A DNA stretch of 64,000 nt from an uncultured Gammaproteobacteria bacterium (lineage in GTDB: Bacteria > Patescibacteriota > Patescibacteriia > Veblenbacterales > UBA10138), in assembly GCA_964453605.1 (NCBI GenBank), contig CAYVOI010000001.1:612095-676094 (forward strand). Direction: 5' to 3'. A program made the position numbers and the translations under genes. This document shows, piece by piece, positions 301-48,638 of this stretch. Below the pieces are notes generated by a model that had not been told where the DNA came from, made no database searches, and saw only the letters and a program-made list of their open reading frames with translations. The first letter of the stretch is position 1; every line of letters starts with the position of its first letter.

Positions 301-2058
301 TTAGCTTGGGTTAGCTGGAGTGGCTTTAGGTTTAGAGACACCAAACGGGAACCGCCAGGTGGTCACACGGCCCACAGCTACTAACCTAAGCAAGGTGCGG
401 GTAACCGTGATGGCCGAGAACATGCTCACTAAGATACCTAAGATAAGCGTGATAGCAAAACCTTTTACCAAGCTGGTACCAAACCACATCAGCACGAACG
501 CCGTAATAAGGCTCGAGACGTTAGAGTCGCGAATCGACGTCCAAGCACGCTTGAAGCCCTCTTCAATAGCCTGGGTAAGGGGTTTACCAGCCCTAAGCTC
601 TTCACGTAAACGTTCAAAAATAAGTACGTTAGCATCAACCGCCATACCAATGGAGAGTATGTAGCCGGCGATGCCAGCCAGTGACAGCGTAATAGGAATG
701 AGCTTAAAGATGGCAAGTGTCAGCCCTGAGTAGAGTGCCAGCGCACCAACTGCCAGGAGCCCGGGCAAGCGGTAGTAGGCAATCATAAAGAACGCCACCA
801 GCAGAATACCAAGGAGGCCAGCTAGCAAACTCTTCTCCACAGAGGTGCGGCCTAGGGTAGCATCAACCTTCTCCTGTGTCAGCAGCTTCACGGGCACCGG
901 CAGTGCACCAGAGTTTAGGCGCTGGGCCAGCTGCTTAGCCTCGGGCAGGGTAAAGTTACCGGTAATAACCGCGCTACCACCGGTGATAGCCTGCTGAACG
1001 GTGGGGATGCTGATGGGGCTACCATCCAAAAAAATGGCTACGGGCTTGCCTACGTTGCGGGAGGTGATGTCGGCGAACAGCTTTTTACCTTCCTCGTTAA
1101 AAGTCAGGTTCACCTGGGGTAACCCCGTGCGCTGGTCAAACTCCACGGTTGCGCGCGTGAGCTGCTTACCCGAGAGCTGTGTCGTGACCCAGGTGTCAGC
1201 TGTCGGCGGCTTTTGTGTCTTGATCAAAATGTGGCTAGCGCGAACCTCCAGACCGTTAGCACCTTGCCGCTCGCCGGTTTTCTTAATAATGTGGTAACCA
1301 AAGTCGCTCTGCACCAGCTCCGGGTACACCTGGCCAACTTTAAGGGTCCAGACCGCATCCTCAAAGGGTTTTACCATCACGCCTTTACCAAAGAAGCCAA
1401 GGTCACCACCCGCGACCTTGCTGCCCTCATCCTCCGAGTACTGCTTAGCCAGACTAGCAAAGTCCTCGCCGCGCTTGACGCGCGCGAGCAAGCCTTGGGC
1501 TTTCGTTTTAGCCTCAGCGTTGTACTTGTCAGTGGCCGAGGTGTCTGGTGCCGCGGTGCTCTGCTCTTTAAACTCTAAAATCGGAGTTTCACCAATAACC
1601 TTGATGGCCTGCTGTACGTCCGTAACACCCGGCAGTTCTACGATCACGCGGTAGTTCTCGCCAACCTTGTCGGTCTGGACCAGGGTTTCCGCCAAGCCCT
1701 GCGGGTTCACGCGGCGGTCGATAATATCCCTGACCCCTTGAATAGCATCCGCCTGGTCACTGGAGGCTACGTGCGACATGTCAGCTTGGTACACCAGGTG
1801 GCTGCCACCTCTGAGGTCAAGCCCCAACTCAATGTTGTGCTTGGTAAACCATGAGTTACCAGGTACCCAGGTAGGGAGCTTGGGCCAATCAACCAAAAAC
1901 GCTAGCACAGCCAAGAGCAGTATGGCTATACACGAATGCCATACCTTCTTACGTGGTGTCATGTTCCGGAACAGCAGCTTGTAGAGCCCTACAAACGGCC
2001 ACCAAATGAACCCTAGTGCTGAGCTTATCCCCTCCCCGAGTTTGCGGAAAAACGCCAT
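301..2058 (-). CDS. secD: Protein translocase subunit SecD
   Basis: 585 aa with an N-terminal TM, a large periplasmic domain (GLDLRGGSHLVYQAD) and C-terminal multi-TM bundle. It sits immediately upstream of secF. Confidence 0.85.
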   Translation of the reverse strand: MAFFRKLGEGISSALGFIWWPFVGLYKLLFRNMTPRKKVWHSCIAILLLAVLAFLVDWPKLPTWVPGNSWFTKHNIELGLDLRGGSHLVYQADMSHVASSDQADAIQGVRDIIDRRVNPQGLAETLVQTDKVGENYRVIVELPGVTDVQQAIKVIGETPILEFKEQSTAAPDTSATDKYNAEAKTKAQGLLARVKRGEDFASLAKQYSEDEGSKVAGGDLGFFGKGVMVKPFEDAVWTLKVGQVYPELVQSDFGYHIIKKTGERQGANGLEVRASHILIKTQKPPTADTWVTTQLSGKQLTRATVEFDQRTGLPQVNLTFNEEGKKLFADITSRNVGKPVAIFLDGSPISIPTVQQAITGGSAVITGNFTLPEAKQLAQRLNSGALPVPVKLLTQEKVDATLGRTSVEKSLLAGLLGILLVAFFMIAYYRLPGLLAVGALALYSGLTLAIFKLIPITLSLAGIAGYILSIGMAVDANVLIFERLREELRAGKPLTQAIEEGFKRAWTSIRDSNVSSLITAFVLMWFGTSLVKGFAITLILGILVSMFSAITVTRTLLRLVAVGRVTTWRFPFGVSKPKATPANPS

Positions 2059-7305: not shown

Positions 7306-7799
7306 AGAGCTTAAAGGTTAGGGGTTAAGCTACCAGAAAATGGTACCACCAGGCCCTGGACTGTCAAATAAAAACAAGGGGGCGAGGTCTTCAAATCTCA
7401 CCACCCTTGCACTGTCGACTCGAGAGCAGAGCTGAGGCACTACTCAGCTTTGGTACATACTGCGACGGCCGACAGACCCGAGGCTTAGATTGGAATTGTA
7501 TTACAGGGACACCAGCAGTGGCCAGAGCGATTACGTGGGGAGGTGCACGCATCGCATGTGGGAGCCACTGCTGGGCCCTACACTTTTATCATTTTTTTAA
7601 GTGCTCTTAGTGTAGCCTGGCCATCGCGTTTTGTCAAGCCCTAGTCAAGCTGTCAAGCTTATAGAGTAGTGAACCAGCTCAGCCCGACCGACGGGCACCG
7701 CTCCTATTCATTAGTGGCGGCACTTGACGTACGTAACTCAGGAGCTAAGATGGTGCCCAGAAGACAAACAACTTACCTTAACACACTCATACTAAGGAG

Positions 7800-10745
7800 G
7801 TGCGTATGAAATACGCTTCCCTGCTGTACGCGCTGCTCCTCGTGCACAACCCGTGCCTAGGACAGCCGAACCCCGACATTTCGTACCACAGCTTTACCTG
7901 GTACATGAAGGCCTTTGACGTGCGGGTTGATAGCACGCACAGCTGCGCTGTCCAGGTGTGGTTCCCCAGCAGTTTCGACACTACCATTGCCAACCTGGCG
8001 GCTAGCCTGACCCAAAGGCTCATCGCGCCGTACGCCGCCACCTTTCTCAGCCTGCGGCCCGTGCGCCAGCCCCCACCCCACCAAGGCGAGCTGGTGCGGG
8101 ACGAAACCGGCCAGCCGCGCCAAGCCACGACACCCTGGTGCCCCGAACGGCTCGTCGTCATCCTGTACCCCAATGCGCAGGACTTCAACCAGCAAAAAAT
8201 AATTCGCGACGAAGCCATTCCCCCCGGTGTGGGCGGCTTTACCGAACCGCTACAGGGCATGCGCTGTGCGGTGCCCTACAGCGGCAACCTGTACTGGTTC
8301 TTATGGGCGCTAGCTCACGAGGTACAGCACACCTTCTACTGCCAGTACCTGCCTGCCAGCCACCGGGACGCTGCCGACCTGGACCTGCCCAATGTGTACG
8401 AGCCAGCTAGCCCACCGCTGTGGTTCATTGAGGGGCAAGCTGAATACACGACGGTCAAATACTTTGGCGACAACCAGCGGAGTAGCCGCCTAGCCCAGCT
8501 CAAGGAAGTGAACCTCATCTACACCGCACACCAAAAGCTACCTGCCTTGGATAAATTTGGTAGAAAATTCCTGAACTACAGCGGTGGCTACAGCTTTTTC
8601 TCGTTTGTACCCACGCTGGCGGAAAGCTCGCAGTACATAACCGCCCAACTAGCTCGTGGACGAAACATCGAGGCAGCCTGGGACAGCCTCGGGCGCGAGC
8701 TAGAGGATGACGAGGTAGCCTGGCGAGCACATGAACAGGCCAACGGGTACCAGCTTACCTTAGGCAGTCCAGCCGATAGCCTGCCTGCCCGCGAACTCAA
8801 CCCTAAGCTGAGTTCAATCGGCGGCATTGGTTACGACCGCGACAGCAAGTACGCTGCTTACTTCCACTTCAACGAAACCTACGATCTAGAAGTAGTGGTC
8901 AGAGACCTGGACTCTCACCTGGCCACGGTGCTCGCCCACCAGTACGAAGACAAGTCGCGCTTCTACCGCGTGTCGAACACGCCGGCTGTCTATGGCAATA
9001 CGGTCGCACTGGTGACCTCGCGTGACGGGCACGATGTGCTGGAGCTCTACGGCCTACACACCAATGGCCGCGGGCTCCACGTCACCCACAAACAGGCCTT
9101 CACCATACCCGGCCTGGTGTGGGTGGATAATGTTTCGTTCATCGACAGCGACTCACTGCTGTTTGTGGGCATGGATGCCAGTGGTCAGCGGGATGTGTAC
9201 ACCTGGAACTACGAGAGCCGGCGGCTGCAGCGGCTGACCAACGACCGCTACGACAAGCAGCAGCCGCAGTACCTGCGCGGCGATACCCTGGTTTACCTAG
9301 AAAGCGGCAGCCTGCCTGATCGGCACCACGTTACCCTGCTCACGCCGCAGGGAAAAACCTGGCTCGAGTTTGGCGGCGATACGCTGTCGTTCCCCGACCA
9401 GATCAAGGTCTGCGATGGGAACGTGGCCGTACGCCTGCTGCGGCCGAACGGAAGTTGCTACCTGGTAGTGTGGAACCCGGCCTGGCCACAGGCCTATCGC
9501 TACCGCTTTGGCACCCGGGTAGCTGGTGACTCGTACGTGGCCTTTCCCCTGGTCACGGACATCATCGGCTGGCAGACGGGCACCTTGACGCTGTTGGTAA
9601 AAAGCTCCACCAGCCTGGTCACCGAGCTGGATAGGTGGGAAGAGATACCGCTTGATACTGCCAAACTCGCGGGCCTCGCTGTTACCTACCGACCCAGCGA
9701 GCCGTTTACGTTCAACCGCTCACCAGCCACTACCGAACTCCCCAGCCAGCCGGCGGACCGCACCATGCGCTACCGCACCATTACACGCGACCGCGCCGAG
9801 CTATCGGACGCTACGGGCGAACACGGCATTATGGTGAACCAAGCCCAGCTGTTCTACCTGGGGAACTTCGGGCTCTTCTACAGGCTCGAGGCTGGCTACT
9901 TCGACCGCTCAGGCCGACCCGAGGTAAACACCCTAGCTAGCGCCGGGCATTCCCCCTGGATCAATGGCTCGCTGCTGAGCTCGCGCCGGGAGGATATCAG
10001 CCTGGACAACTGGGCCATTGCCAAACGCCAGTACCTCTACCCGTTGGATCCAGAACAGAGCGTGTGGTGGCAGGGCTCAATCGGGTACTTGGTGCGCACG
10101 TTTGACAACGAGGCTCACCCCTCGACCACTACCCCCATCCTGGGGTTGGGTGCTGGCTACCGCAGTGACGGGGTCTACGGCAACCCATTAGTTGACGTGT
10201 ACCACGGCACCGCCCTGACCCTGGCCCTAGCGGGAACGGTGGGCCAGGTGGCTAGCCAGTACCAGCTGCTCGACGGCAGTGCCAGCCTGAACTTCCGCTG
10301 GTACTGGCAACCGTGGCCGCTCACCGCCTACCTGGCCTGCCAGGTGGCTGGCGGGTTTGCCACCGGGCCGTATGCCACCAACTTCTTCACCCCCGCGCTA
10401 GCACCACAGCCTGGCGTGCTGACGTTCGACTACAACCGCAGCGTTGGTTCACGCCTGGCCGTGGCTGAAGCCGAGTGGCGCCTGCCGGTGGCGCGGCTGT
10501 TCCTTACGCAGTACCGGTTCTGGGAAGCTAGCAATCCACTGCTCGTATTTGTCTCGCTGGGCACGGGCTGGTTCTACGCCGCAGGCGCAGTGGGCAGCCA
10601 AGGCACGCCGCTCCGTTTTACCAGCCGTACCGGTCTGATGGTTGAGCTCAGCCCCTTCTCGGGGGTAGCGGCTCGCTATGAGTACGGCACCACGTTCGGC
10701 CTACCCGGCTGGCAGGGCAGCTGGAACATACGCACCACCTGGTGA
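7800..10745 (+). CDS. Large secreted multidomain protein: signal peptide, MA-clan zinc peptidase-like domain (HExxH...EGxAEY), TolB/PD40-like beta-propeller region, Omp85/surface-antigen-like C-terminal region
   Basis: Strong SD AAGGAGGTG 6 nt upstream of the ATG. Signal peptide MKYASLLYALLLVHNPCLG. LAHEVQHTF followed by FIEGQAEYTTVKY matches the Peptidase_MA_2 pattern. The 981-aa ORF ends ...SWNIRTTW and is followed by a perfect bidirectional terminator. Confidence 0.75.
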   Translation: MRMKYASLLYALLLVHNPCLGQPNPDISYHSFTWYMKAFDVRVDSTHSCAVQVWFPSSFDTTIANLAASLTQRLIAPYAATFLSLRPVRQPPPHQGELVRDETGQPRQATTPWCPERLVVILYPNAQDFNQQKIIRDEAIPPGVGGFTEPLQGMRCAVPYSGNLYWFLWALAHEVQHTFYCQYLPASHRDAADLDLPNVYEPASPPLWFIEGQAEYTTVKYFGDNQRSSRLAQLKEVNLIYTAHQKLPALDKFGRKFLNYSGGYSFFSFVPTLAESSQYITAQLARGRNIEAAWDSLGRELEDDEVAWRAHEQANGYQLTLGSPADSLPARELNPKLSSIGGIGYDRDSKYAAYFHFNETYDLEVVVRDLDSHLATVLAHQYEDKSRFYRVSNTPAVYGNTVALVTSRDGHDVLELYGLHTNGRGLHVTHKQAFTIPGLVWVDNVSFIDSDSLLFVGMDASGQRDVYTWNYESRRLQRLTNDRYDKQQPQYLRGDTLVYLESGSLPDRHHVTLLTPQGKTWLEFGGDTLSFPDQIKVCDGNVAVRLLRPNGSCYLVVWNPAWPQAYRYRFGTRVAGDSYVAFPLVTDIIGWQTGTLTLLVKSSTSLVTELDRWEEIPLDTAKLAGLAVTYRPSEPFTFNRSPATTELPSQPADRTMRYRTITRDRAELSDATGEHGIMVNQAQLFYLGNFGLFYRLEAGYFDRSGRPEVNTLASAGHSPWINGSLLSSRREDISLDNWAIAKRQYLYPLDPEQSVWWQGSIGYLVRTFDNEAHPSTTTPILGLGAGYRSDGVYGNPLVDVYHGTALTLALAGTVGQVASQYQLLDGSASLNFRWYWQPWPLTAYLACQVAGGFATGPYATNFFTPALAPQPGVLTFDYNRSVGSRLAVAEAEWRLPVARLFLTQYRFWEASNPLLVFVSLGTGWFYAAGAVGSQGTPLRFTSRTGLMVELSPFSGVAARYEYGTTFGLPGWQGSWNIRTTW

Positions 10746-10770: not shown

Positions 10771-10808
10771 AATCCTGAAGCTTGATCAGCTTCAGGATTT
10801 TTATTTTA
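10771..10808. terminator. Bidirectional intrinsic terminator (11-bp perfect stem AATCCTGAAGC/GCTTCAGGATT, A-tract before, T-tract after)
   Basis: Seen directly in sequence between the convergent 981-aa gene (+) and msrA (-). Confidence 0.8.
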
Positions 10809-10835: not shown

Positions 10836-11390
10836 TCAGGTAGCTTTAAGTAGGTGTGCGTACGTGGCGCGAAACTTGGCAAGCTTTGGACTAATAACTG
10901 CTTGGCAGTACCCAGCGTCGCTATTACGGGCGTAGTAGTTGCGGTGGTACTCCTCAGCTTCGTAAAAATTCTTGAGTGGCTCCACTTTTGTTACAATCGG
11001 CACCCCAAAGTCGCCTGAAGTATTAAGCTCATCAATAAACTCACGTGCAATTCTAGCCTGCTCCTCGCTCATGGTGAGAATTACGGAGCGGTACTGCTCC
11101 CCTACGTCGGCCCCTTGCCTATCAACGGTGGTAGGGTTGTGGGTACCAAAGAACACACCGAGCAAATCACGGTACGAAACCTGGGTCGGGTCAAACTCTA
11201 CCTTGATAACCTCCGCATGACCAGTAGTGCCGTTACACACTTGTTCATACGTCGGGCGCTCTTTCGTGCCGCCAGCGTAGCCTGGCATAACGCTGGTCAC
11301 CCCCTTTACCTGGTTAAACACGGCTTCAGTGCACCAGAAGCACCCACCGCCAAATACTGCTACTTCATATGTTTTACTCATGGCGTCCAT
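10836..11390 (-). CDS. msrA: Peptide methionine sulfoxide reductase MsrA
   Basis: GGGCFWCTEAVF active-site motif. Start probably at an internal Met (MDAMSKTYEVAVFGGGCFW); the listed ORF extends to 11414. Confidence 0.85.
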   Translation of the reverse strand: MDAMSKTYEVAVFGGGCFWCTEAVFNQVKGVTSVMPGYAGGTKERPTYEQVCNGTTGHAEVIKVEFDPTQVSYRDLLGVFFGTHNPTTVDRQGADVGEQYRSVILTMSEEQARIAREFIDELNTSGDFGVPIVTKVEPLKNFYEAEEYHRNYYARNSDAGYCQAVISPKLAKFRATYAHLLKAT

Positions 11391-11468
11391 AAGTTCAGAA
11401 CTATTGTACCACACTTATACTACCACAGGGTCAGCCCTTGCGGGCTGACCCTGTGCCAAAACTGTAGC

Positions 11469-12474: not shown

Positions 12475-12948
12475 CTACCTGAGATCTGCCAACTCCTCCA
12501 GCGCCTTTGCAGCGTAGAACCTAATGTTAGCCCTCAGGTCGGCAGACTGCAGGTCGGCACTCGTGAACCACTTCCACTCTTCACTCTGGTCGCCGCGGTA
12601 GGTGACGGTTACCCTATCGGACGTAGCGCGGGCAAAGTACACCAACGTCACGTGTTCGTGAGTTGGGGAAACGCGGTGGCGATTAAGATAGCGGGGCGCT
12701 AGGAGCTCTCGGTAGTTCGGATTGTGTGCTTCACCGGTATTGGGTTGCGTGCCAGCAAGCTCAACGTTCAAACCCACCTCCTCCACTACCTCGCGTACAG
12801 CGGCTTGGTTCGGGTCTTCATCCAGCTCGACGTGCCCACCAACCGATAGCCAGATTTTGTACTTGTCGTGTTTCCGCAGTAGGACTTTATCTTTGTAGAC
12901 AATAAACACTTCCACGGTGAAATCTATGTTCTCATGGATGTGCGGCAT
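12475..12948 (-). CDS. NUDIX hydrolase
   Basis: Nudix box GGHVELDEDPNQAAVREVVEEVGL (Gx5Ex7REVxEExG). Confidence 0.75.
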   Translation of the reverse strand: MPHIHENIDFTVEVFIVYKDKVLLRKHDKYKIWLSVGGHVELDEDPNQAAVREVVEEVGLNVELAGTQPNTGEAHNPNYRELLAPRYLNRHRVSPTHEHVTLVYFARATSDRVTVTYRGDQSEEWKWFTSADLQSADLRANIRFYAAKALEELADLR

Positions 12949-15685: not shown

Positions 15686-18406
15686 TTATGCGCCGTGACA
15701 ACGCTTATACTTCTTGCCTGAACCGCACGGGCAGGGGTCGTTGCGGCCGACTTTGTGGCCAGCGGCGTCGCGTGGTTTGGCTGAAGCGTTACCACTGGCG
15801 GATAGTGCCGGGGCGTACACGCTCTTGCCCTCGGCCATGGTCTTGGCTGGGCCTTGCTCTTGCATTTGTAAGCGCGGCGCCTCTTGCTCCTTAACTAAGT
15901 TCTGCACCACTTGGGATTTGTAAATGTTGTAAACCACTTCGTCCTGAATAGCTGCCAAGAGCTCTTTGAACATGCGGTAGCCTTCGCGCTTGTACTCCAC
16001 CAGCGGGTCGCGCTGACCGTAGCCCTGTAGCCCAATGCCACCCCTAAGGTGGTCCATGGTTGTTAAGTGCTTAACCCATAAGTTGTCTATACTCCGAAGC
16101 AGAATGGTTTTCTCGGCCTCGCGCATAATATGCTCGGGGTTTGTAACGCCGATTTTCCGAGCGTCGTTTACGAGCTGGGCTTCCAGCTTGTTGTACGCCC
16201 CACCGGCTAGACCCGTGAGGTAGGTAATTATTTTGGAACGAGCTTTAGCGTCAGCTGAAGCGTCGCCGGCTTCGGCTTCAATATCATCAAGCTTTTTCCG
16301 AAGTTCCTGGGGCACGGGGAACATGGAGTGAGCCACTTCGTAAATTTCCTGCAGGTTCCACTTAGACTCGTCCTCAATTGCGGTGTGAAAGGCAACTACC
16401 TCGGCAATCTCTGCCTCGATCATGCCTATGACCTGCTTTTTCAAAGCCGCGGGGTCGCTCTCAGTATCGCGCAAAATTTGCCGGCGGCGCTCGTAGATAG
16501 CCTCGCGCTGTTTGTTCAACACATCGTCGTACTCCACCAGGTGCTTGCGGATGTCAAAGTTGTTCCCCTCTACCTTTTTCTGCGCGGTGGCAATGGAACG
16601 GCTGACGAGCTTGTTCTCTATCGGTACATCGTCTGGGAGCCCGAGGCGAACCATCATAGCCTTTACACGATCACCCCCGAAAATGCGCATGAGGTCGTCC
16701 TCTAGAGATACAAAGAACTGTGACACACCGGGGTCGCCTTGGCGGCCACTGCGGCCACGGAGCTGGTTGTCGATGCGGCGCGCCTCGTGCCGCTCAGTAC
16801 CGATGACCCTCAGGCCCCCAGCCTTACGCACGAACTCAGCCTCGGCCTCTACGGCCGGGTTGCCGCCGAGTATGATGTCGACACCGCGGCCAGCCATGTT
16901 GGTGGCAATGGTGACCGCGCCTTTGCGGCCTGCCTGGGCGATGATGGCTGCTTCACGCTCGTGGTTTTTGGCGTTCAACAACTCGTGCGGCACGCCTTCG
17001 CGCGTGAGGAGCTCGGAAAGTAACTCGTTCTTCTCAATAGAAATAGTGCCAACCAAAACCGGCTGGCCAGCCTCGTGCGCCTTTTTTACCTCTGCTACTA
17101 CGGCTTGCAGCTTACCAGTTTCGTTCTTGTAGACCCTGTCTGGCAGGTCGGCGCGCACCATGGGGCGGTGAGTCGGAATAGAGACTACTTCCAGCTTATA
17201 AATTTTGAAAAACTCTTCTGCTTCGGTGGCCGCGGTACCAGTCATGCCAGCGAGTTTTTTGTAAAGCCTAAAGTAGTTTTGGAAGGTGATGGTGGCGAGC
17301 GTTAGCGATTCGCGTTGAATTTTAACGTTCTCCTTAGCCTCAATGGCCTGGTGCAAGCCTTCGGAATAGCGGCGGCCGAACATGAGGCGGCCCGTGAACT
17401 CATCTACAATCACTACCTCGTCGTCCCTCACCACGTAGTCACGGTCACGGCGGAACAGCGCCTTGGCTTTGAGCGCCTGCTCCAGATGGTGTACCATTTC
17501 GAACCCGCCCTCCTCGTAAAGGTTTTTTACTCCGAGCCAGCTTTCGGCTTTAGTAATACCCTCGTCCGTAAAGGTTGAGGCTCGCATTTTCTCGTCTACG
17601 TTGTAGTCGGTGTTCTCGACCAAAGTATCTACAAACCGTGCTACGTCGTAGTACTTCTGCACCGCCTCTTCCGCTGGTGCGGAAATAATGAGCGGGGTGC
17701 GGGCTTCGTCAATTAAAATAGAGTCCACCTCGTCCACAATGGCGAAGTGTAGGGGGCGCTGCACCATTTGTTCCTTGCGCCACACCATGTTGTCCCGGAG
17801 GTAGTCAAAGCCAAACTCGTTGTTGGTGCCGTAGGTGATGTCGGCCTGGTAGGCCTCGCGCCGTGGCACGGGGCGGAGGTTAGCAAAGGTGGGGTCGCTG
17901 TGCTGTACGGTGGGGTCGTACAGGTAGGCAGTTTCGTGGTTTATGCAGGCACAGGTCAGGCCTAAGGTCGCGTACACCTTGCCCATCCAAATAGCGTCAC
18001 GCCGTGCCAGGTAGTCGTTCACGGTAACCACGTGCACACCCTTACCCTCCAGCGCGTTAAGGTACACGGCACTCGTCGCAGTTAACGTTTTACCTTCACC
18101 GGTTCTCATTTCAGCAATTTGCCCACGGTGCAGCACCATGCCGCCCACGAGCTGTACGTCAAAGTGCCGCTGGCCTATGGCCCGCCGGGCGCCCTCGCGC
18201 ACGATGGCAAAGGCCTCAGGCAAAAGGTCGTCTAGCGTTTGGCCGTTTGCCAAACGAGTCTTGAGCTCTTGGGTACGAGTTTTAAGAACTTCGTCGCTCA
18301 GCGCTTTGACTTCGCCTTCCAGCTCATTCACACGCGAAACCAGTGGCTGGAGTTTACCAACCACGCGAGCATTTGGGTCGCCAAAAAGTTTGTTCAAAAA
18401 AGACAT
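15686..18406 (-). CDS. secA: Preprotein translocase ATPase SecA
   Basis: 906 aa. N-terminus [16 protein letters not shown]..., DEAD-motor motifs, and a C-terminal zinc finger [14 protein letters not shown]. Confidence 0.95.
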
Positions 18407-20299: not shown

Positions 20300-20848
20300 T
20301 TACTCACCAGGCACAAACACGGCGGCCGCCAGCACGGTAGTCCACAGGCCGTCCTTGTGGCCAATAGCTGACTGGGTAACGTTGGTGGTTTTAATAATCT
20401 TGCCGCTGGCTTTGTAGAGCTGCTCGCGCTCGTCCCAGGCGGCATTGGGGTCAAACTCTAACCCCAAGGTGGTAGCCAGCATGCTGGCGGCTAGGTCTTC
20501 GGCGTACTCACCCGCCTTCTCTTCGGTTTCGCCGAAGGACTTGTGCTCCGATAGGTAGCCGTACTGCGTGCCATCGCTCGGCAAACCTAACCCAACCGCG
20601 GCGGCTATTAAACGATTGGGCTCGTTCGATCGGTTCTGGTAGATAACGGCAAACACCACTTCACCGGGCTTCAGCAGCTCCAAACCTTGGCTGCGGCTGA
20701 TAATTTTACAGCCGGGTGGAAAAATGGACGACACACCAACAATGTTAAACTTCTCGATGCCGGCGTCCCTGAGCGCCATTTCAAACGAGCCTAGCTCTTC
20801 TTTGTGCCGCCCCACACCTTTGGTAAAGAAAACGTACTTGGGAACCAT
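20300..20848 (-). CDS. pdaD: Pyruvoyl-dependent arginine decarboxylase (PdaD/AaxB family)
   Basis: [45 protein letters not shown] matches the PvlArgDC N-terminal region, including the SS self-cleavage site. Confidence 0.6.
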
Positions 20849-29344: not shown

Positions 29345-31087
29345 ATGCTCAACCAAAACCACCTTACCCAAGCGCTCCTGGCTACCAAAACCATCTCGAA
29401 CGATGATTTAAAGCAGATCAAGGAAAAGCTAAAGCGGGATCAGGTTAGCCTCGAGGATTACCTCTTGAAGCAACACCTCATAACCGAAGAGGCTCTCTAC
29501 CAAGCCTTGGCACGAGAGCTCAATTTGCCGTTCATCGATCTCAAGAACACGGTCATCCGCAAAGACATCTTGCTGGCTGTCCCTGAACCTATTGCCCAGG
29601 TGCACCAGCTGATCGCCTTCGACCGGGACGACAAAACGGTAAAAATTGCTAGCTGCGACCCGGAAGATCTTCAAACCTTTGAGTTCCTAGAGAAAAAGTT
29701 CGGCAGCAAGCTTATGGTGCACCTCACCACCCCCTCGTCGCTGCGGGAGGTGTTGAAGCAGTACCACAAGAGCCTGCGCGCTGAGTTTGCTGAGCTCACG
29801 AAAGAGGAACCGGGTGGCGAAGGGGAAAACGGTAGCGAGGCCAAGGGGAGCGACCTCAAGCAGCTGGCGACCGACCTGCCGGTAGTTAGGATTGTCGACA
29901 CCCTACTGGAGTACGCCATTTTTGAACGCGCCTCTGACATCCACATCGAGCCTACCGAGACCGACGTGGTGGTACGCTACCGGATTGATGGAGTCTTGCG
30001 GGACGTTATGACCCTACCCAAGAACGTGCAGGCAGGCTTGGTCGCCAGGCTCAAAATTCTCAGTAACCTCAAGCTCGACGAACACCGCCTACCCCAAGAC
30101 GGCCGCTTTAAGATTAAAACCAACGAGTACGAGGTTTCATTCCGCGTCTCCATTATTCCGGTGTTCGACGGCGAAAAAATCGTCATGCGTTTGCTCCAAG
30201 AGTCGAGCCAGGTGCTGACCTTAGAACAGCTGGGGTTCCAAGCCAAACCGCTCGAAATTTTGAAGCGCAGCATCAGTAAGCCCCACGGCATGATACTGGT
30301 CACGGGCCCCACGGGCTCAGGCAAAACCACCACGCTCTACTCAGTCCTCGCCCTGCTCAACACCACCGACGTCAACATCTGCACGGTGGAAGACCCGGTA
30401 GAGTACCGCATGCCGCGCATCAACCAGAGCCAGGTGAACCCCAGAATCGGCTTCACCTTTGCCGCTGGCCTCCGCTCGCTCCTCCGGCAAGACCCCGACA
30501 TAATCATGGTGGGCGAAATCCGTGATGCCGAAACTGCCGAGATTGCCATTCACGCCGCCATGACTGGCCACCTCGTGCTTTCCACCCTCCACACCAACGA
30601 CGCGGTGGGTACGCTCCCTAGGCTCCTCGACATGGGCATTGTTCCCTTTCTGGTCGCCTCCACCACCAACGTCATTGTGGCCCAGCGCCTGGTCAGGAAA
30701 ATCTGCACGAACTGCAAAACGAGCTACCAGCTCAGCAAAAAGAACGTCGATGAGCTCGGGCTTGAGCTCGACCTCAAGGCCCTACTCAAAACCCTAGAGC
30801 GGGAAAAGGTCCTGAATTCCAACCAGTCGCTCGAAACCCTAACCTTCTACCGCGGCAAAGGCTGCAAGCAGTGCAACGACGACGGCTACAAGGGGCGCCT
30901 GGGGATTTACGAGGTCTTCGAGGTGACGCCTGAGGTTTCAGACCTCATCCTGAACCGGGCCTCAAGCCGCGAGCTCAGCAAGGCGGCCCTGGGCCAAGGC
31001 ATGCTCACCATGCTGGAAGACGGCTTTATGAAAGCGGTGAAAGGGATTACGACCTTAGAAGAGGTGTTGCTGGCGGCCAAAGAGTAA
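29345..31087 (+). CDS. pilB: Type IV pilus assembly ATPase PilB (GspE family)
   Basis: 580 aa with GspE_N-like N-domains, Walker A GPTGSGKTT, Asp/His boxes, and a C-terminal tetracysteine (CTNC...CKQC). Confidence 0.9.
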   Translation: MLNQNHLTQALLATKTISNDDLKQIKEKLKRDQVSLEDYLLKQHLITEEALYQALARELNLPFIDLKNTVIRKDILLAVPEPIAQVHQLIAFDRDDKTVKIASCDPEDLQTFEFLEKKFGSKLMVHLTTPSSLREVLKQYHKSLRAEFAELTKEEPGGEGENGSEAKGSDLKQLATDLPVVRIVDTLLEYAIFERASDIHIEPTETDVVVRYRIDGVLRDVMTLPKNVQAGLVARLKILSNLKLDEHRLPQDGRFKIKTNEYEVSFRVSIIPVFDGEKIVMRLLQESSQVLTLEQLGFQAKPLEILKRSISKPHGMILVTGPTGSGKTTTLYSVLALLNTTDVNICTVEDPVEYRMPRINQSQVNPRIGFTFAAGLRSLLRQDPDIIMVGEIRDAETAEIAIHAAMTGHLVLSTLHTNDAVGTLPRLLDMGIVPFLVASTTNVIVAQRLVRKICTNCKTSYQLSKKNVDELGLELDLKALLKTLEREKVLNSNQSLETLTFYRGKGCKQCNDDGYKGRLGIYEVFEVTPEVSDLILNRASSRELSKAALGQGMLTMLEDGFMKAVKGITTLEEVLLAAKE

Positions 31088-31325
31088 ACAAGTATGCCCG
31101 GATATACAACTTCGCTAGCGCTCGCCCCGCACCAGAGCGGAGCACGGTACGGGGCTTCGCCTTTCAACCTCAGTGTGGTACAAGTTGATAGGGAGCAACC
31201 CACTGCGCCCTCTATCCTGCTCTTGGTGCGCGGGCTCGTGACAACCACCAGGTACCATAACCTTATGCTTCGTACACGGACGTTATTCACTAATCATTCG
31301 TTTACCTCCACTCGCGCTTGGGTGG

Positions 31326-32564
31326 TTGAGCGAAGTTGATATACCGGGTATGAAACTCGGCTACACCGCGCGAAACCAAGAGGGGAAACTTGAGCAGGGT
31401 GAGCTGGAGGTTGCCTCAGAACACGATCTGGCTGAAATCCTCCGTGCCCAAGGCTTGGTGCTGACGCACGTTACGGGCGCACCAAGTACCACCCCAGCTC
31501 AACCGCGGCGGTTTGAGTTCACGCTGCAGCGGGTGTCGGTGGTTGACAAAATATTCTTCACCCAAAACCTACAGGTTATGGTGAAGGCCGGGCTACCGCT
31601 CTCGACCGCGCTCAAAACTATTGCCCTGCAAACGGGTAATAAGACGTTCCAGCGCATTCTCCGTAGCGTTTCAGAGCAGGTGGACCGTGGTATAGCCATG
31701 TCCGATGCCCTGGTGCCCTACCCTAAGGTATTCTCCGAGCTCTTTGTGAACATGATTCGGGCCGGTGAAAAAAGCGGTAAATTGGAAGAGGTTTTAGAAC
31801 AGATTGCAACCCAGCTCCGCAAGAGCCACGCCCTGGTCTCCAAGGTACGCGGCGCGCTGACCTACCCCATCATCGTGGTGCTGGCTATGATCGGCATTGG
31901 TACCGGCATGATGGTGTTCGTGGTACCACAGATAACAAGCGTGTTTGAAGAAGTACACGCCACGCTACCCCTGCCAACCAGAATTTTGGTGGCGACCAGC
32001 CACTTCTTGGTCACGCACGGCGTGTGGGTAGCCCTCGGGGTCATTGTGCTGGGGGCTGGTTTTGTGCAGGTTATCCACCTGCCCAAAGGCCGCCGGCTCT
32101 GGCACGGGCTACTGCTCAAGCTCCCCATCGTAAGCCCAATTTTGAAAAAAATAAACCTGGCTAAGTTCTCCCGCACGTTCTCTTCGCTCCTCAAAACTGA
32201 CATCCCCATTGTGCAAGCCTTCCACATTACGGCGAGCACCCTCGGGAACAGCCTCTACCGTGAAGCGGTGGAGGAGGCGGCCGAGCAGGTAAAAAAAGGC
32301 GCCCCCGTTGCCACCATTATACGCACCCACCCCAAGCTCTTCTCGCCGCTCATCACGCAAATGGTAGCGGTGGGCGAAGAAACGGGCACCTTAGACAGCG
32401 TGCTGGACGAGCTGGCGGTGTTCTACGAAGACGACGTCGACCGCACCATGGGTAGCCTGGCCACCATTATCGAACCTGTCCTCATGCTGCTCCTCGGGGC
32501 TGGGGTGGGGGGCATTGCCGTCTCTATCATGCTGCCGCTGTACTCACTGTCCGAAAACTTTTAG
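31326..32564 (+). CDS. pilC: Type IV pilus platform protein PilC (GspF family)
   Basis: Two GspF repeats with 3 TM helices. Follows pilB. Confidence 0.85.
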   Translation: MSEVDIPGMKLGYTARNQEGKLEQGELEVASEHDLAEILRAQGLVLTHVTGAPSTTPAQPRRFEFTLQRVSVVDKIFFTQNLQVMVKAGLPLSTALKTIALQTGNKTFQRILRSVSEQVDRGIAMSDALVPYPKVFSELFVNMIRAGEKSGKLEEVLEQIATQLRKSHALVSKVRGALTYPIIVVLAMIGIGTGMMVFVVPQITSVFEEVHATLPLPTRILVATSHFLVTHGVWVALGVIVLGAGFVQVIHLPKGRRLWHGLLLKLPIVSPILKKINLAKFSRTFSSLLKTDIPIVQAFHITASTLGNSLYREAVEEAAEQVKKGAPVATIIRTHPKLFSPLITQMVAVGEETGTLDSVLDELAVFYEDDVDRTMGSLATIIEPVLMLLLGAGVGGIAVSIMLPLYSLSENF

Positions 32565-32566
32565 CT

Positions 32567-33022
32567 ATGTTACTACATACCGAGCGCGCCGGACTAAGCC
32601 TGCTGGAAATTTTAACCACCGTCGCCATTGTTATCTTGTTGAGCCTCCTCGCTATACCCTACTTTAATTCCAGTAACCAGCACACCAGGCTCAAGGGTGA
32701 TGCCGAAGCACTAACCAGCGACCTCCGGCTCGCCCAACAGCGAACCATCGGGGAACAGGTGACCTACCTGGTCAAACTCTTCGACACTACCCCACCGAAG
32801 TACCAGCTCCTCAAACGCCAGAATGGTACTGATACGCTCATTAAGGAGCGCGCCTTGAGTACCGGCATCAGGTGGCAATCCTTGGGCACCTTTACCAACC
32901 ACGAAGTAGTGTTTACCCCCACCGGCGCGGTCAGCGAGTCGAGCGCTATCGTGCTCGCTAGCTCCGACAACGCGCAAGCGTCGGTTGAAGTTAAACCATC
33001 AGGCTATGTGCGAACCAACTAG
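32567..33022 (+). CDS. Prepilin-type N-terminal cleavage/methylation domain protein (minor pseudopilin, GspH/FimT-like)
   Basis: AGLSLLEILTTVAIVILL class III signal. Confidence 0.7.
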   Translation: MLLHTERAGLSLLEILTTVAIVILLSLLAIPYFNSSNQHTRLKGDAEALTSDLRLAQQRTIGEQVTYLVKLFDTTPPKYQLLKRQNGTDTLIKERALSTGIRWQSLGTFTNHEVVFTPTGAVSESSAIVLASSDNAQASVEVKPSGYVRTN

Positions 33023-33431
33023 AACCAGGCGCGGTTTCAGCCTCATTGAGGGGCTAGTCGCCATCTCCATTATGGCCGTAGCCCTCATTACGGTGCTCGG
33101 GGCGGTACCCACCACGCTCCAGGCCAACAAACACGCCGAACTCGAGAGTTTGGCTTCGGTTTACGCCCGGGCCAAGCTCGAGGGCTTGCTCACCACCTCG
33201 TACGATGAACTTGGTACCGGCACCGTAGAACCGCGCACGGTGCTCTCCAGCGACCCAGCGAACCCAGCATCTAAGCTCTATCGCACCTCAACCGTTACGC
33301 TGCTCGACGCGAACTTCAGCCAGAGCTCAACCGACCAGGGCCTTAAAAAAATTACGGTCACCGTAGACTGGCCCAACCCCCGAGGAACATTAGGCACCTT
33401 GAGCTTCTCGAGCGTGCTCAGCCAGAAGTAG
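33006..33431 (+). CDS. Prepilin-like protein (minor pilin)
   Basis: RRGFSLIEGLVAISIMAV prepilin motif (G-F-S-L-I-E). Confidence 0.65.
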   Translation: MCEPTRTRRGFSLIEGLVAISIMAVALITVLGAVPTTLQANKHAELESLASVYARAKLEGLLTTSYDELGTGTVEPRTVLSSDPANPASKLYRTSTVTLLDANFSQSSTDQGLKKITVTVDWPNPRGTLGTLSFSSVLSQK

Positions 33432-33437
33432 AACCTT

Positions 33438-34019
33438 GTGTACACTTCACGCTACCACCGCCAGCCAACCCGCCAACCTAAGCAGGGCTTTACCTTGGTC
33501 GAAACCGTGGTGGGGATATTCATTGGCCTGCTCGTTATCCTCTCCGCCTACTCTATATTCCAGCTAGCGCTCAGAACCAAACCCAGGCTACAGAACCGAG
33601 CTGAGATTATCCAGAACATGCGAGCAACGTTTGACCGCTTCTCGCGCGAACTCAGGCAAGCCAACATTATTGTAACGACGCTACCAGCCAACGAGATACT
33701 GTTTGAAGACGGCCACGGCAACCTTGATAACACGCCACTACAGTACCTGAGGTACCACCTGGTAGGCTCCGACCTCTACCGCGAGGTCAGCTACTACAGC
33801 TTCCCGGGTAATCCCTCCACCCACGTTAGCTACAACGACACCGATGCTAATGGTAACCTACCCACCAACACCGTAACCGAAGACCGGCTGATCGGCGAGT
33901 ACCTAAGTTCACTGAGCTTCACCACTGACGGCAGTACCATCGCCGTCACCGCCACGCTCTACCTTAACCACGAAACCCTAACCCTCACCACCAATGTCGC
34001 CTCACGCAACCTCAACTAA
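33438..34019 (+). CDS. Prepilin-like protein (minor pilin)
   Basis: KQGFTLVETVVGIFIGLL prepilin motif. Confidence 0.65.
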   Translation: MYTSRYHRQPTRQPKQGFTLVETVVGIFIGLLVILSAYSIFQLALRTKPRLQNRAEIIQNMRATFDRFSRELRQANIIVTTLPANEILFEDGHGNLDNTPLQYLRYHLVGSDLYREVSYYSFPGNPSTHVSYNDTDANGNLPTNTVTEDRLIGEYLSSLSFTTDGSTIAVTATLYLNHETLTLTTNVASRNLN

Positions 34020-35217
34020 CGCTAGGCGCGGGTTTGTGCTGCTCATTGTTTCGGCGATTAGCGCTGCGCTCCTGCTCCTCACCGGCTACCTCTTAGAGCA
34101 AGCTCGGAGCGAGATACGTATAGCCGTAAGCGAGCAGCAGGCCACCACCGCCTACTACCTCGCTGAAGCCGGCTCGAACGAAGCTATCTACAAGCTCAAA
34201 AACGACTCAACCTGGAAATCAAAATTTCTTACGGGGACGTTTACAAACGACAGCTTTACGCACAGCAACCTGTTCGGCGGTACCGGCAGCTACACCGTTA
34301 CTGCGTCGAGTGCTGGTGACGCGCTGGTAGACATAACGGTCACCGCCACCTACAGCGCTGGCGGGCAGCAATCTAAGCGCGTCATCAAGACGCGCTACAC
34401 CCGCGCCACAAACCCAGCCGACACCTGGGGACAGTCTATGTACGGTGGTGATACTTCAACACAGCAGAACGGTAACGTGACGGTGAGCCGCAACTGTACG
34501 GTGAACGGCGGCACCCTGCAAGCCAACCAAAACTTCAAAATCACCAACCACGCTACCCTGACCGTGAACAGCGCCGCAGTTAAGGCCAGCAACAACCTCA
34601 TCGTCAATGGCGGCGGCACCCTCGTGCTTAACAACAGCACCCGAACCGAGGGTGTCGCGAGCGTGGCGATGCCCCAGGTAGACTTTGACTCGAGCTCTGC
34701 CACCTCCCTCAAAAACCGAGCTGACCAAACGTACACCGCTGCCCAGTTCACCGCCCTACCCTCCGGTACCACCCTCAATGGCGTTACCTACGTCAGCGGT
34801 AACGCCACCTGGACGAACAAGAACCTGACTATTAACGGCATCCTAGCAGCGAGCGGTGACATTAGCATCACACTCACCAGCGCCTACACGCTAGCGATAA
34901 ACGATGGCAACGTCGCGAGCGGTGGCTCTGGGCTCTTAGGCAAGAACAACATCACCGCCTCGGTGACCGGCGGCCACCTCACTATTCGTGGCCTGGTCTA
35001 TGCGGTGAAAGACCTAACCGTGACAGCTAAATCCACTCCTACCTTCTCTGTCACCGGTGGGGTGTTAGGGTTCCACCTGTCACTCGGCGACAATGACACC
35101 TCAGGCACCTGCACTATCACCTACGACTCCACGCTAGCTTCGAGCCCCCTTGACCCAGCCCTCAATGGTAACGAGAGCCCCATCATACAAGTAAACCACT
35201 GGGAAGAGGAGTACTAG
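33994..35217 (+). CDS. Large pilin-like / pilus tip-associated protein (Thr/Asn/Ser-rich, beta-helix-like)
   Basis: RRGFVLLIVSAISAALLLL N-terminal anchor resembling a prepilin signal (the +5 Glu is absent). 407 aa T/N/S/G-rich repeats. Confidence 0.5.
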   Translation: MSPHATSTNARRGFVLLIVSAISAALLLLTGYLLEQARSEIRIAVSEQQATTAYYLAEAGSNEAIYKLKNDSTWKSKFLTGTFTNDSFTHSNLFGGTGSYTVTASSAGDALVDITVTATYSAGGQQSKRVIKTRYTRATNPADTWGQSMYGGDTSTQQNGNVTVSRNCTVNGGTLQANQNFKITNHATLTVNSAAVKASNNLIVNGGGTLVLNNSTRTEGVASVAMPQVDFDSSSATSLKNRADQTYTAAQFTALPSGTTLNGVTYVSGNATWTNKNLTINGILAASGDISITLTSAYTLAINDGNVASGGSGLLGKNNITASVTGGHLTIRGLVYAVKDLTVTAKSTPTFSVTGGVLGFHLSLGDNDTSGTCTITYDSTLASSPLDPALNGNESPIIQVNHWEEEY

Positions 35218-35260
35218 AGCTTCACGAATCACCAAAACGCTATGGTATACTGTAGTCACT

Positions 35261-36334: not shown

Positions 36335-36863
36335 CTTAAACCTCCTCCCACCGGCGCAAAAAGCCAACCTCCGCTACGACCACACCTACCTCTACCTTCG
36401 CTACGTAGTGTCGGTGGTACTGGTTGCTACCGTCGTCATTGCCGGCATACTACTGGGCGCTCGACTGCTGCTGCAAAACCACTACCTCGAGCTCCTGACG
36501 AGCTCTAGCCTGGTGAACGAGCACAACCGCGGCGTCGACCGTGAAATCAGTGATCTCAACCAAAAGCTCAAGCAAGCTAGGACCATTCAAGCCGACTTCG
36601 TCAAGTGGTCGGGAGTACTGGTGAGCTTAGCCCAAACCATTCCCCCCAACGTCCAGATTTCCTACCTCAACATCGAGCAGAACTCTAAGACCGTATCCCT
36701 AAGCGGGGTAGCACAAACCCGCGACGACTACCTCAAGCTCAAGAGCAACCTTGAGGCCCTGCCCTACCTAGCGAACGTTTCAGCGCCGTTCAGTAGCATC
36801 CTCAAGCCCACCAACGTTAAGTTCGACCTCAACGCTCAACTCAACCCTGAGCACCTGCCGTAG
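36327..36863 (+). CDS. pilN: PilN-like bitopic protein
   Basis: N-terminal TM plus a coiled/periplasmic domain. Overlaps the pilM stop. Confidence 0.6.
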   Translation: MISLNLLPPAQKANLRYDHTYLYLRYVVSVVLVATVVIAGILLGARLLLQNHYLELLTSSSLVNEHNRGVDREISDLNQKLKQARTIQADFVKWSGVLVSLAQTIPPNVQISYLNIEQNSKTVSLSGVAQTRDDYLKLKSNLEALPYLANVSAPFSSILKPTNVKFDLNAQLNPEHLP

Positions 36864-36864
36864 T

Positions 36865-48631: not shown

Positions 48632-48638
48632 AAGATTA

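Follow-up and report, generated by a model that had tools for sequence, protein, structure and literature searches.

The window, a 64,000-nucleotide stretch of DNA, carries an open reading frame at 7800..10745 on its plus strand that contains the peptides quoted in an earlier note on this DNA, namely LAHEVQHTF (aa 171-179), FIEGQAEYTTVKY (209-221), DGHDVLELYG / DVYTWNYESRRLQRLTND, GSRLAVAEAEWRLPV, LVFVSLGTGWFYAAG and TGLMVELSPFSGVAARYEYG. The reading frame of the 981-aa gene proposed in that note stands, but its start does not: the GTG at 7800 falls within the Shine-Dalgarno sequence, and the ATG at 7806 is likely the start codon of the peptidase-barrel gene. Translation from this ATG gives a protein of 979 aa, the length of database entry P0001, and in the ortholog at locus L081 AAGGAG precedes the ATG by an equal distance. 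Residue numbers throughout follow the 981-aa ORF numbering. The N-terminus (MKYASLLYALLLVHNPCLG followed by Q) resembles a Sec signal peptide, as previously proposed, and its cleavage position aligns with the ...A-Q(R/F)(N/G) junction of relatives. A lipoprotein signal was rejected because a lipobox is absent and Cys19 is not conserved. A ribosome binding site and a terminator of its own make the gene a stand-alone unit (Table 1). Upstream of it, the three GTCAAGC repeats described before were recovered at 7633, 7644 and 7652. Because the heptamer is not enriched in the whole window (17 matches vs 10.8 expected), it is notable for its local clustering only, and in L081, L082 and L084 the upstream regions of the orthologs show no conservation of the repeat; the triplet may be an operator.

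Table 1. Features of the peptidase-barrel gene and its surroundings (positions are those of the window)
Feature	Position	Strand	Basis or remark
Three direct GTCAAGC copies	7633..7658	+	spacing 11 and 8 nt; ~150 bp before start
Sigma-70-like promoter candidate TTGACG-16-TAAGAT	7724..7751	+	consensus match only, 9/12
Shine-Dalgarno AAGGAGGTG	7794..7802	+	includes GTG called as start by ORF finder
Coding sequence, 979 aa + stop codon	7806..10745	+	start moved from 7800
Sec-type signal peptide, predicted cleavage after G21 (CLG/Q)	7806..7862	+	sequence reading and alignment with relatives
MA(E) gluzincin peptidase domain, about aa 30-320	7887..8759	+	predicted structure and motifs
TolB/PD40-like beta-propeller, about aa 340-640	8817..9719	+	second half low-confidence in model
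Omp85-type 16-stranded beta-barrel, about aa 655-981	9762..10742	+	predicted structure; L6-like loop; ends W981
Bidirectional intrinsic terminator, 12-bp stem, T-runs on both strands	10771..10799	.	between gene and convergent msrA
msrA	10836-11414	minus	convergent with peptidase-barrel gene
Type IV pilus genes PilB, PilC, GspH-like pseudopilin, PilM, PilN	29345-37416		

The N-terminal domain was modelled with a thermolysin-like (zincin) catalytic fold. In the predicted structure, H173-E174-x-x-H177 lies on one helix (164-183) and E211 of E-G-x-A-E on another (207-222), and an invariant G-F-T-E149 strand runs upstream of HExxH. The H173, E174, H177 and E211 columns are invariant both in 27 family members and in 17 members of a Patescibacteria (CPR) clade to which the query belongs. 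The fold, the two ligand helices and their invariant residues agree with the MA-clan zinc peptidase read from the sequence earlier, and we regard the domain as a predicted zinc metallopeptidase with an intact HExxH...E site. PF13485 (Peptidase_MA_2) did not match the query, for which the best peptidase match in Pfam was Peptidase_M9 (E 0.11); one CPR-clade member matched PF13485 at E 0.0055, and the diderm relative P0005 passed it with 58.6 bits vs a cut-off of 32.4. The catalytic domains of M9 collagenase and M1 aminopeptidase are 12-14% identical to the query peptidase. The collagen-binding and activator domains of M9 collagenase are absent from the query protein, and the GAMEN motif of M1 aminopeptidase is replaced by G-F-T-E.

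The central region was modelled as a six-bladed TolB-like propeller that precedes the barrel in the place of POTRA domains. Computation thus upheld the PD40/TolB-like repeats as a propeller of the TolB/PD40 type, and a direct profile search of the query against TolB gave a sub-threshold match (E 0.0027). A POTRA domain in the linker between propeller and barrel was rejected because no search detected one; a scan of the POTRA Pfam models against the query and those relatives that were scanned returned no match. The WD40-Omp85 and noNterm subfamilies are likewise without POTRA (PMC4104836).

The C-terminal region, which had been called Omp85-like, was modelled as a POTRA-less 16-stranded barrel, with the highest prediction confidence in the protein (pLDDT 87). 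A long, structured L6-like loop (aa 856-884) would lie between strand 11 (844-855) and strand 12 (885-903). The protein ends in ...WNIRTTW, so its terminal residue (W981) is aromatic as reported, and 15 of the 17 CPR-clade members end in W, Y or F. Searches of Pfam, NCBIfam and PDB sequences with the query gave sub-threshold matches only (including DUF5735 and a pilus-assembly chain at E 0.38). When the Peptidase_MA_2, PD40 and Omp85 models were applied as the earlier note had proposed, the query stayed below threshold whereas diderm relatives passed all three. For the barrel, PF01103 (Omp85) matched neither the query nor any of the 16-17 CPR-clade members even at E<=1, and the diderm relative P0017 passed the Pfam model at 51.8 bits vs a cut-off of 24. 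A CPR barrel profile retrieved nothing relevant from PDB sequences. Alignment of the CPR clade with diderm relatives by hhalign scored 98.9% (E 1.5e-17), and an FCB barrel HMM built without the query matched CPR orthologs at 2e-12, 5e-8 and 1.7e-4. Because no curated model or PDB sequence search recognises the query domains, the barrel call rests on predicted structure and transitive homology. Strand dyad hydrophobicity was significant when averaged over the family, where 47 of 5000 shuffles equalled or exceeded the observation (p~0.009), but not for the query alone (1546 of 5000), in a single-sequence test corrected for choosing the more hydrophobic face.

Among the BamA, Sam50 and TamA barrels, whose sequence identity to the query barrel is 9-16%, the best structural match was BamA of Deinococcus radiodurans (8xnb). 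In canonical Omp85 proteins, the Arg of VRGY in L6 and the Asp of FxDxG in beta13 lock loop 6. BamA has POTRA domains, R-G-F/Y in L6 and F-x-D-x-G in beta13, whereas the query has no POTRA domains, P-G-V and F-x-A-x-G. The (V/I)RG(F/Y) motif of L6 is absent, with P871-G872-V873 as the query triplet and L-Y-R-x-P-G-F as the CPR-clade consensus; R888-G889 is invariant at this site in the diderm relatives. In the hhalign register, beta13 of the query reads F925-Y-A927-A-G929, which keeps the Phe and Gly and has Ala for Asp; the Asp position is Tyr in the CPR-clade consensus, and F951-D953-G955 is invariant in the diderm relatives. Loss of the Arg/Asp lock suggests a barrel that no longer performs BamA-like gating, and comparison with BamA, Sam50 and TamA gave no evidence for an insertase function of the query barrel.

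The combination of parts had been thought an unusual architecture, but it is that of the "WD40-Omp85" subfamily defined in 2014 (PMC4104836), and it is widespread in diderm phyla. The accessible part of the original paper describes members as a BamA-BamB-like fusion (Heinz and Lithgow 2014, PMC4104836) and does not mention a peptidase domain. We found no experimental study of any WD40-Omp85 member in the literature. The diderm members compared here (P0002-P0030 and loci L001-L080, from the FCB group, Acidobacteriota and Gemmatimonadota) are homologous to the query along its whole length and have an identical order of parts: signal peptide, MA peptidase, TolB-like propeller and POTRA-less Omp85 barrel. 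BLASTP aligned the query with P0005 over aa 117-489 at 2e-15 and over aa 758-943 at 1e-6. The query was aligned with 26 relatives, with which it has invariant motifs in common, and HExxH, E-G-x-A-E, G-F-T-E and the beta12 E-x-R-x-P are invariant in the diderm proteins and the CPR clade alike. By homology and domain order, then, the query is a member of the WD40-Omp85 subfamily, and the predicted structure indicates that the three-domain reading (MA(E) peptidase, TolB/PD40 propeller and POTRA-less 16-stranded Omp85 barrel) is correct.

The CPR clade nevertheless differs from the diderm WD40-Omp85 proteins in several respects. Identity between the two is only about 18-24%, the VRGY/FxDxG Arg/Asp pair is missing, the propeller region is shorter or degenerate, an insert at aa 87-115 is specific to the clade, curated HMMs do not match, and the host lineage is monoderm according to reports. 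The close relatives in this clade were recovered by exhaustive phmmer only, and a word-index homolog search returned none of them. The family is rare: about 21 clusters matched at E<=1e-30 in a set of 1.84 billion representatives, and a metagenome scan with a two-sequence pattern returned one locus. In a neighbour-joining (NJ) tree, the CPR clade was monophyletic at 100/100 and fell outside every sampled diderm group, at 18% identity to the diderm sequences. Because the clade sits on a long branch attached at the midpoint root, the tree is indecisive between ancient horizontal transfer and vertical descent. Judging from the alignment, the clade is long diverged and has been maintained by selection, with invariant catalytic residues and with conservation of the barrel, of the aromatic last residue and of the hydrophobic dyad pattern.

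The source organism is most probably a Patescibacterium (CPR), as gene content and sequence relatives indirectly indicate. Orthologs come from contigs with a Patescibacteria label, of which one derives from a 0.1 um filter fraction of groundwater, and the window shares secA, a NUDIX gene, an L9-S41 protease and pilus genes with four independent ortholog contigs. The secA and NUDIX genes are common to the CPR-clade loci, SecA being about 50% identical. Among window ORFs of at least 150 aa, no match was found to the secretin, Bam, Lpt, Lol or Tol-Pal families, in accordance with the earlier observation that the pilus locus is without a secretin. Similarly, we found no BAM, Lpt, Lol or secretin genes in ~115 kb of CPR sequence and no second Omp85-like ORF in the window and L081-L085.

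We favour, with a probability of roughly 55%, a reading in which the gene product is a Sec-exported, envelope-anchored predicted zinc metallopeptidase of the WD40-Omp85 subfamily. The barrel would serve as a membrane anchor, not as a translocator, and the N-terminal enzyme and propeller would be oriented towards the cell, in the wall or a periplasm-like zone. To our knowledge, this orientation of the N-terminal part holds for all Omp85 proteins whose topology is known, PlpD among them. In tricorn, DPP-IV and prolyl-oligopeptidase, a propeller restricts access to the active site, and the propeller of the query may similarly limit access to peptides or unfolded chains. Substrates of the protein could then be polypeptides that are exported, misfolded or scavenged, to be trimmed or degraded at the envelope. 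A functional parallel is offered by BepA, a zinc metalloprotease, and BamB, a beta-propeller, which serve envelope-protein quality control at an Omp85 barrel. While BepA, BamB and BamA are separate proteins, the query would hold three comparable elements in one polypeptide. This is a functional analogy only, as BepA (an M48 protease with TPR repeats) and BamB (an eight-bladed lipoprotein) are not homologous to the query domains.

The comparison with PlpD (patatin-Omp85, type Vd) made in the earlier note holds in that a hydrolytic enzyme is likewise fused N-terminally to an Omp85 barrel. It no longer supports a surface-displayed passenger, however, because the enzyme domain of PlpD is periplasmic (PMC11116518), which is the topology we infer for the query protein. 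The passengers are not homologous: a patatin lipase with one POTRA domain in PlpD, a predicted zinc peptidase with a propeller, and without POTRA, in the query. Profile searches gave no patatin or POTRA match in the query, and its N-terminal fold is predicted to be a zincin.

It is also conceivable, though in our view unlikely, that the Patescibacteria lineage is not a simple monoderm and that an outer lipid layer, present or kept from a diderm ancestor, houses the protein. As perhaps the sole Omp85 member of its lineage, the protein may then be a minimal insertase or an anchor. A 16-stranded barrel conserved across a deep clade together with its dyad pattern and aromatic last residue would be expected under this reading, and the CPR clade is not nested in the sampled diderm groups of the NJ tree. 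The last bacterial common ancestor is inferred to have been diderm, and the outer membrane to have been lost on the stem of CPR and Chloroflexota (PMC12329446; PMC10160955). However, CPR cells are reported to be without an outer membrane (PMC7906910, PMC12857230), none was seen by cryo-TEM of groundwater ultra-small cells (PMC7906910), and CPR lack LPS and fatty-acid synthesis (PMC10221324). The absence of a secretin from the pilus locus and the loss of the L6 and beta13 lock residues of canonical insertases argue in the same direction. Moreover, the family is rare and its derived three-domain architecture is shared with FCB bacteria, so horizontal acquisition fits better than a relic.

Horizontal acquisition could also have left a barrel that is not membrane-embedded. 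The C-terminal domain of a gene from a diderm would then persist as a folded module (e.g. for wall or S-layer attachment) behind a functional peptidase and propeller. Such a leftover, which we think rather improbable, would fit the missing Arg/Asp lock, the failure of the Pfam Omp85 model to match, the non-significant hydrophobic alternation in the single sequence and the reported monoderm state of the host lineage. But the barrel is predicted well (pLDDT 87), all 16 strands and the L6-like loop have been kept, as have the aromatic last residue and a significant family-level dyad pattern, and a closed barrel with a hydrophobic outer surface is not expected to be soluble.

We give still less credence to a factor for the interaction of an epibiont with its host, in which the exported barrel would insert into a Gram-negative host's outer membrane or dock on it, with the peptidase active at the contact zone, in nutrient acquisition or envelope remodelling. 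CPR cells do attach to Gram-negative hosts and rely on host lipids (PMC7906910), and the CPR cell has no recognised membrane able to hold the barrel. The end of the type IV pilus operon lies ~140 bp from the ortholog in L081 and the operon is 19 kb away in the window, but this linkage is weak because secA, not pilus genes, adjoins the ortholog in two other loci. No toxin, adhesin or secretion-system signal was detected. Furthermore, we know of no monomeric 16-stranded Omp85 barrel that inserts from outside a cell, and known Omp85 barrels are assembled by BAM from the periplasmic side. Although the nearest annotated relatives beyond the clade all come from diderm phyla, a binning or assembly contaminant from a diderm is effectively refuted by the position of the gene in the interior of a contiguous window of an 876-kb contig, a GC content like that of its neighbours, the gene context shared with the four independent ortholog contigs, and the monophyly of a clade only 18% identical to diderm sequences.

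Omp85 proteins are treated as signature markers of the outer membrane and are used to infer whether an uncultured lineage has one membrane or two and to reconstruct outer-membrane loss. The three-part architecture is already known from Gram-negative phyla; here it occurs in a very divergent Patescibacteria (CPR) clade, with a conserved Omp85-type barrel that is invisible to standard HMM annotation. It is possible but doubtful that a functional, membrane-embedded barrel of the Omp85 family has been kept in a deep Patescibacteria (CPR) lineage. If true, supposedly monoderm ultra-small bacteria would have an unrecognised outer lipid layer, perhaps a diderm relic, or else would put a barrel of the outer-membrane type into a foreign (host) or other non-canonical membrane; either would provide a first molecular handle on CPR envelope architecture and the diderm-to-monoderm transition. 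If the barrel is in an outer membrane, some CPR envelopes differ from what is assumed; if it is not, divergent, repurposed barrels can mislead marker-based inference of envelopes. The predicted envelope peptidase, with its site intact, occurs in organisms that must scavenge amino acids. In diderm phyla, the uncharacterised WD40-Omp85 subfamily carries a conserved and apparently active zinc peptidase, which suggests that WD40-Omp85 proteins are single-chain units of protease, propeller and barrel for envelope proteolysis.

The query gene (7800..10745, +) is present in the window and encodes all of the peptides quoted in the earlier note. GTG 7800 is part of a strong Shine-Dalgarno sequence (AAGGAGGTG, 7794-7802), which makes ATG 7806 the probable start and gives a 979-aa product identical to P0001, the sole database copy; residue numbers here follow the 981-aa ORF. 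The N-terminus fits a predicted Sec signal peptide, and in alignments its CLG/Q mature N-terminus is in register with the ...A/Q junction of relatives. The gene is a stand-alone unit (see table). Three GTCAAGC copies reported upstream of it are real, and these repeats showed no conservation upstream of orthologs. A perfect 11-nt inverted repeat (CCAGCAGTGGC ... GCCACTGCTGG, 41-nt loop, 7512-7574) occupies part of the divergent intergenic region (490 bp) that precedes the gene. Zero matches to Rfam families were found across the whole window.

Features of the window and of three contig loci (L081, L082, L084) carrying orthologs of the query
Feature	Sequence	Position	Strand	Remarks
SecD-type protein (SecD_1st, SecDF_P1_head, SecD_SecF_C)	window	301-2058	-	PPIC-type rotamase domain inserted, aa 171-261
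Promoter-like site	window	7724-7751		upstream of query gene
Bidirectional terminator hairpin, 12-bp	window	10771-10799		between query gene and convergent msrA
Pyruvoyl-dependent arginine decarboxylase	window	20300-20848	-	PvlArgDC, E 1e-61; enzyme type better known from archaea
Type IV pilus operon	window	29345-37416	+	PilB, PilC, GspH-like pseudopilin, PilM, PilN; also ORFs of 193 and 407 aa (before PilM, PilN) and 183 aa (after) without family match
454-aa protein	window	46553-47917	+	N-terminal PEGA domain, then weak beta-propeller signal
RmlA-like	window	47894-48652		dTDP-rhamnose-type sugar-nucleotide gene flanking 1,355-aa ORF
RmlD-like	window	49583-50419		as RmlA-like
1,355-aa ORF	window	50844-54911	-	no Pfam match
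Dehydratase	window	54915-55919		as RmlA-like
Integrase or transposase-like protein, C-terminal end	L081	1-190		upstream of ortholog (...RPHQALGSLTP...)
Peptidase-Omp85 gene and pilus operon	L081	303-9730		closest ortholog's contig; gene convergent with operon (PilB, PilC, three small ORFs, 622-aa ORF), ~140 bp from its end
Ortholog divergent to adjoining secA	L082	7241-13051		Patescibacteria assembly; genes 80-200 bp apart
Ortholog divergent to adjoining secA	L084	6858-13120		second Patescibacteria assembly; genes 80-200 bp apart

Searches of Pfam, NCBIfam and PDB sequences with the query returned no significant match, the sub-threshold ones being to Peptidase_M9 (E 0.11) and TolB (E 0.0027). 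Because these curated libraries were silent, domain calls were made via relatives and predicted structure. A word-index search retrieved nine proteins of about 1,000-1,080 aa with 22-24% identity, and BLASTP against diderm relatives aligned both ends of the query (aa 117-489, 2e-15; aa 758-943, 1e-6). These relatives exceed the Pfam cut-offs for Peptidase_MA_2 and PD40, and many also exceed that for Omp85 (PF01103); one of them, P0017, reaches 51.8 bits against the Omp85 model (cut-off 24; profile positions 53-321 of 325). Against PDB sequences, the diderm-family profile matched TolB (E 1e-29), Fusobacterium BamA (E 2.7e-7), the M9 collagenase catalytic domain (E 2.9e-4), and also tricorn, DPP-IV and S9 enzymes. 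The barrel profile of the Patescibacteria (CPR) clade aligned with the barrel part of a diderm-family profile built without the query at an hhalign probability of 98.9% (E 1.5e-17, 299 columns), and a diderm barrel-only HMM matched CPR orthologs at 2e-12, 5e-8 and 1.7e-4. The earlier reading of three domains is thus borne out by profile alignments, the relatives' Pfam matches and the predicted structure, and the C-terminus does not model as a soluble sandwich. A proline-/glutamine-rich insert (PVRQPPPHQGELVRDETGQPRQATTPWCP, window 8058-8144, aa 87-115), modelled at low AF2 confidence, follows the first beta-alpha unit and precedes the catalytic core; variable in form, it is confined to the CPR clade.

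The earlier note had considered this architecture unusual. However, the architecture is already known, though uncharacterised: in the passages of PMC4104836 on the subfamily, Heinz and Lithgow (2014) named it 'WD40-Omp85', counted it among ten Omp85/TpsB subfamilies and compared it with a fusion of BamA and BamB. Those passages make no mention of a peptidase domain, and in the searched literature the term occurs in a single further paper. From a scan of species-representative genomes, relatives are encoded at at least 500 loci in Bacteroidota, Ignavibacteria, Chlorobiota, Gemmatimonadota, Zixibacteria, Eisenbacteria, KSB1, WOR-3, Glassbacteria, Delongbacteria and Acidobacteriota, with a full-length ORF in 39 of the 40 loci processed. 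Their source annotations are generic ('PD40 domain-containing protein', 'peptidase MA family metallohydrolase', 'Tol biopolymer transport system component').

When 1.84 billion cluster representatives were searched exhaustively with phmmer, 296 matched at E<=1e-3, of which 21 reached E<=1e-30. Among the matches are the protein P0036, 42% identical to the query end to end, and about 20 clusters that align over nearly the whole query at 25-33% identity. Only two members carry a phylum-level name, MEK7465322.1 and MEK7630190.1 ('hypothetical protein [Patescibacteria group bacterium]'), on contigs of assemblies GCA_964365955.1 and GCA_964362295.1, in both of which the gene adjoins a divergent secA; one Patescibacteria copy comes from the 0.1 um filter fraction of Hainich groundwater. 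In a neighbor-joining tree of 55 sequences the CPR proteins form a single clade (bootstrap 100/100; query subclade 97/100), whose members share a mean identity of 27% with one another and 18% with the diderm set. Its branch attaches at the midpoint root, nested within no sampled diderm group, a placement that appears compatible with ancient transfer and vertical descent alike.

Gene neighbourhoods are partly shared. The window holds secA (15686-18406) and a NUDIX gene (12475-12948) within 8 kb, rearranged in orientation relative to L082 and L084; in L084 a NUDIX gene lies downstream of secA. SecA is 49-50% identical between the window and the ortholog loci, and the window also shares the L9-S41 protease adjacency with them. 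PilB and PilC of the operon adjoining the L081 ortholog are 44% and 37% identical to those of the window. The window has expected CPR features: a longest contig of 876 kb, a mur/ftsW cluster, SecA, SecD with an inserted PPIase, and PilB/C/M/N, with no secretin detected anywhere in it and no match to an outer-membrane biogenesis family among its ORFs of at least 150 aa. The window is itself very probably of CPR origin. By its domain content, the SecD-PPIC fusion would join a translocon subunit to a folding catalyst. The 1,355-aa ORF may encode a large surface or glycosylation-related protein, and the PEGA protein is probably another envelope protein.

No variation is seen at H173, E174, H177 or E211 in either a 27-sequence family alignment or a 17-sequence CPR alignment, and T148-E149 of the upstream G-F-T-E strand is fixed or almost fixed, so that the peptidase is probably active. 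Because E215 varies within the CPR clade, the third zinc ligand is likely to be E211. In the diderm relatives both Omp85 hallmarks are invariant, VRGY (R888-G889) and F951-x-D953-x-G955. The query has P871-G872-V873 as its L6 triplet (CPR-clade consensus L-Y-R-x-P-G-F) and F925-x-A927-x-G929 as its beta13 motif (Tyr in the clade consensus). In BamA the L6 Arg and beta13 Asp interact, keeping L6 inside the barrel. Loss of both partners in the CPR clade argues against conserved BamA-like gating. In many diderm members two conserved cysteines flank L6 (consensus VRGYxxxxxxCxxxxxxxCxD), which suggests a loop-6 disulfide; the pair is absent from the CPR clade.

Computational predictions show an export signal, an intact gluzincin site, a propeller and a closed-barrel fold, and we propose that the barrel would serve as an anchor. 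To our knowledge, all Omp85 proteins of known topology have the domains preceding the barrel on the cell-facing side. With an even number of strands, these domains and the C-terminus share one side. The peptidase and propeller would thus sit on the cell-facing side, as does the periplasmic lipase domain of PlpD (PMC11116518). On the model of tricorn, DPP-IV and S9 enzymes, the propeller would probably limit active-site access to peptides or unfolded chains, and the protein's substrates in the envelope would be exported, misfolded or scavenged polypeptides. BepA with BamB at BamA may be a looser functional likeness to this domain combination.

CPR cells are described as having a surface layer and no outer membrane, which reconstructions infer was lost on the stem lineage of CPR and Chloroflexota (PMC12329446, PMC10160955); it is therefore not obvious where a conserved barrel whose outer face is hydrophobic would reside. 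Under our working explanation the barrel would be an anchor in an unspecified lipid layer belonging to the cell's own envelope. We also considered a lineage with a genuinely diderm-like envelope. Insertion of the barrel into a host outer membrane was likewise considered, as was a barrel that is a non-membrane relic. Each of the four readings is compatible with the ~115 kb of CPR sequence inspected, in which no second Omp85-like ORF was found. Alternating hydrophobicity of the predicted strands is significant as a clade average (1.42 versus 0.96 +/- 0.19; 47 of 5000 shuffles reach the observed value) and not significant for the query alone, and the last residue is W, Y or F in 15 of the 17 clade members. 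In the searched literature, Omp85 is tied to Patescibacteria by incidental mentions alone. Within a known Omp85 subfamily, the query group is a strongly diverged clade, altered in its motifs and invisible to annotation, and its interest, raised by the earlier remark on an outer membrane, is that an Omp85-type clade is kept in supposedly monoderm bacteria.
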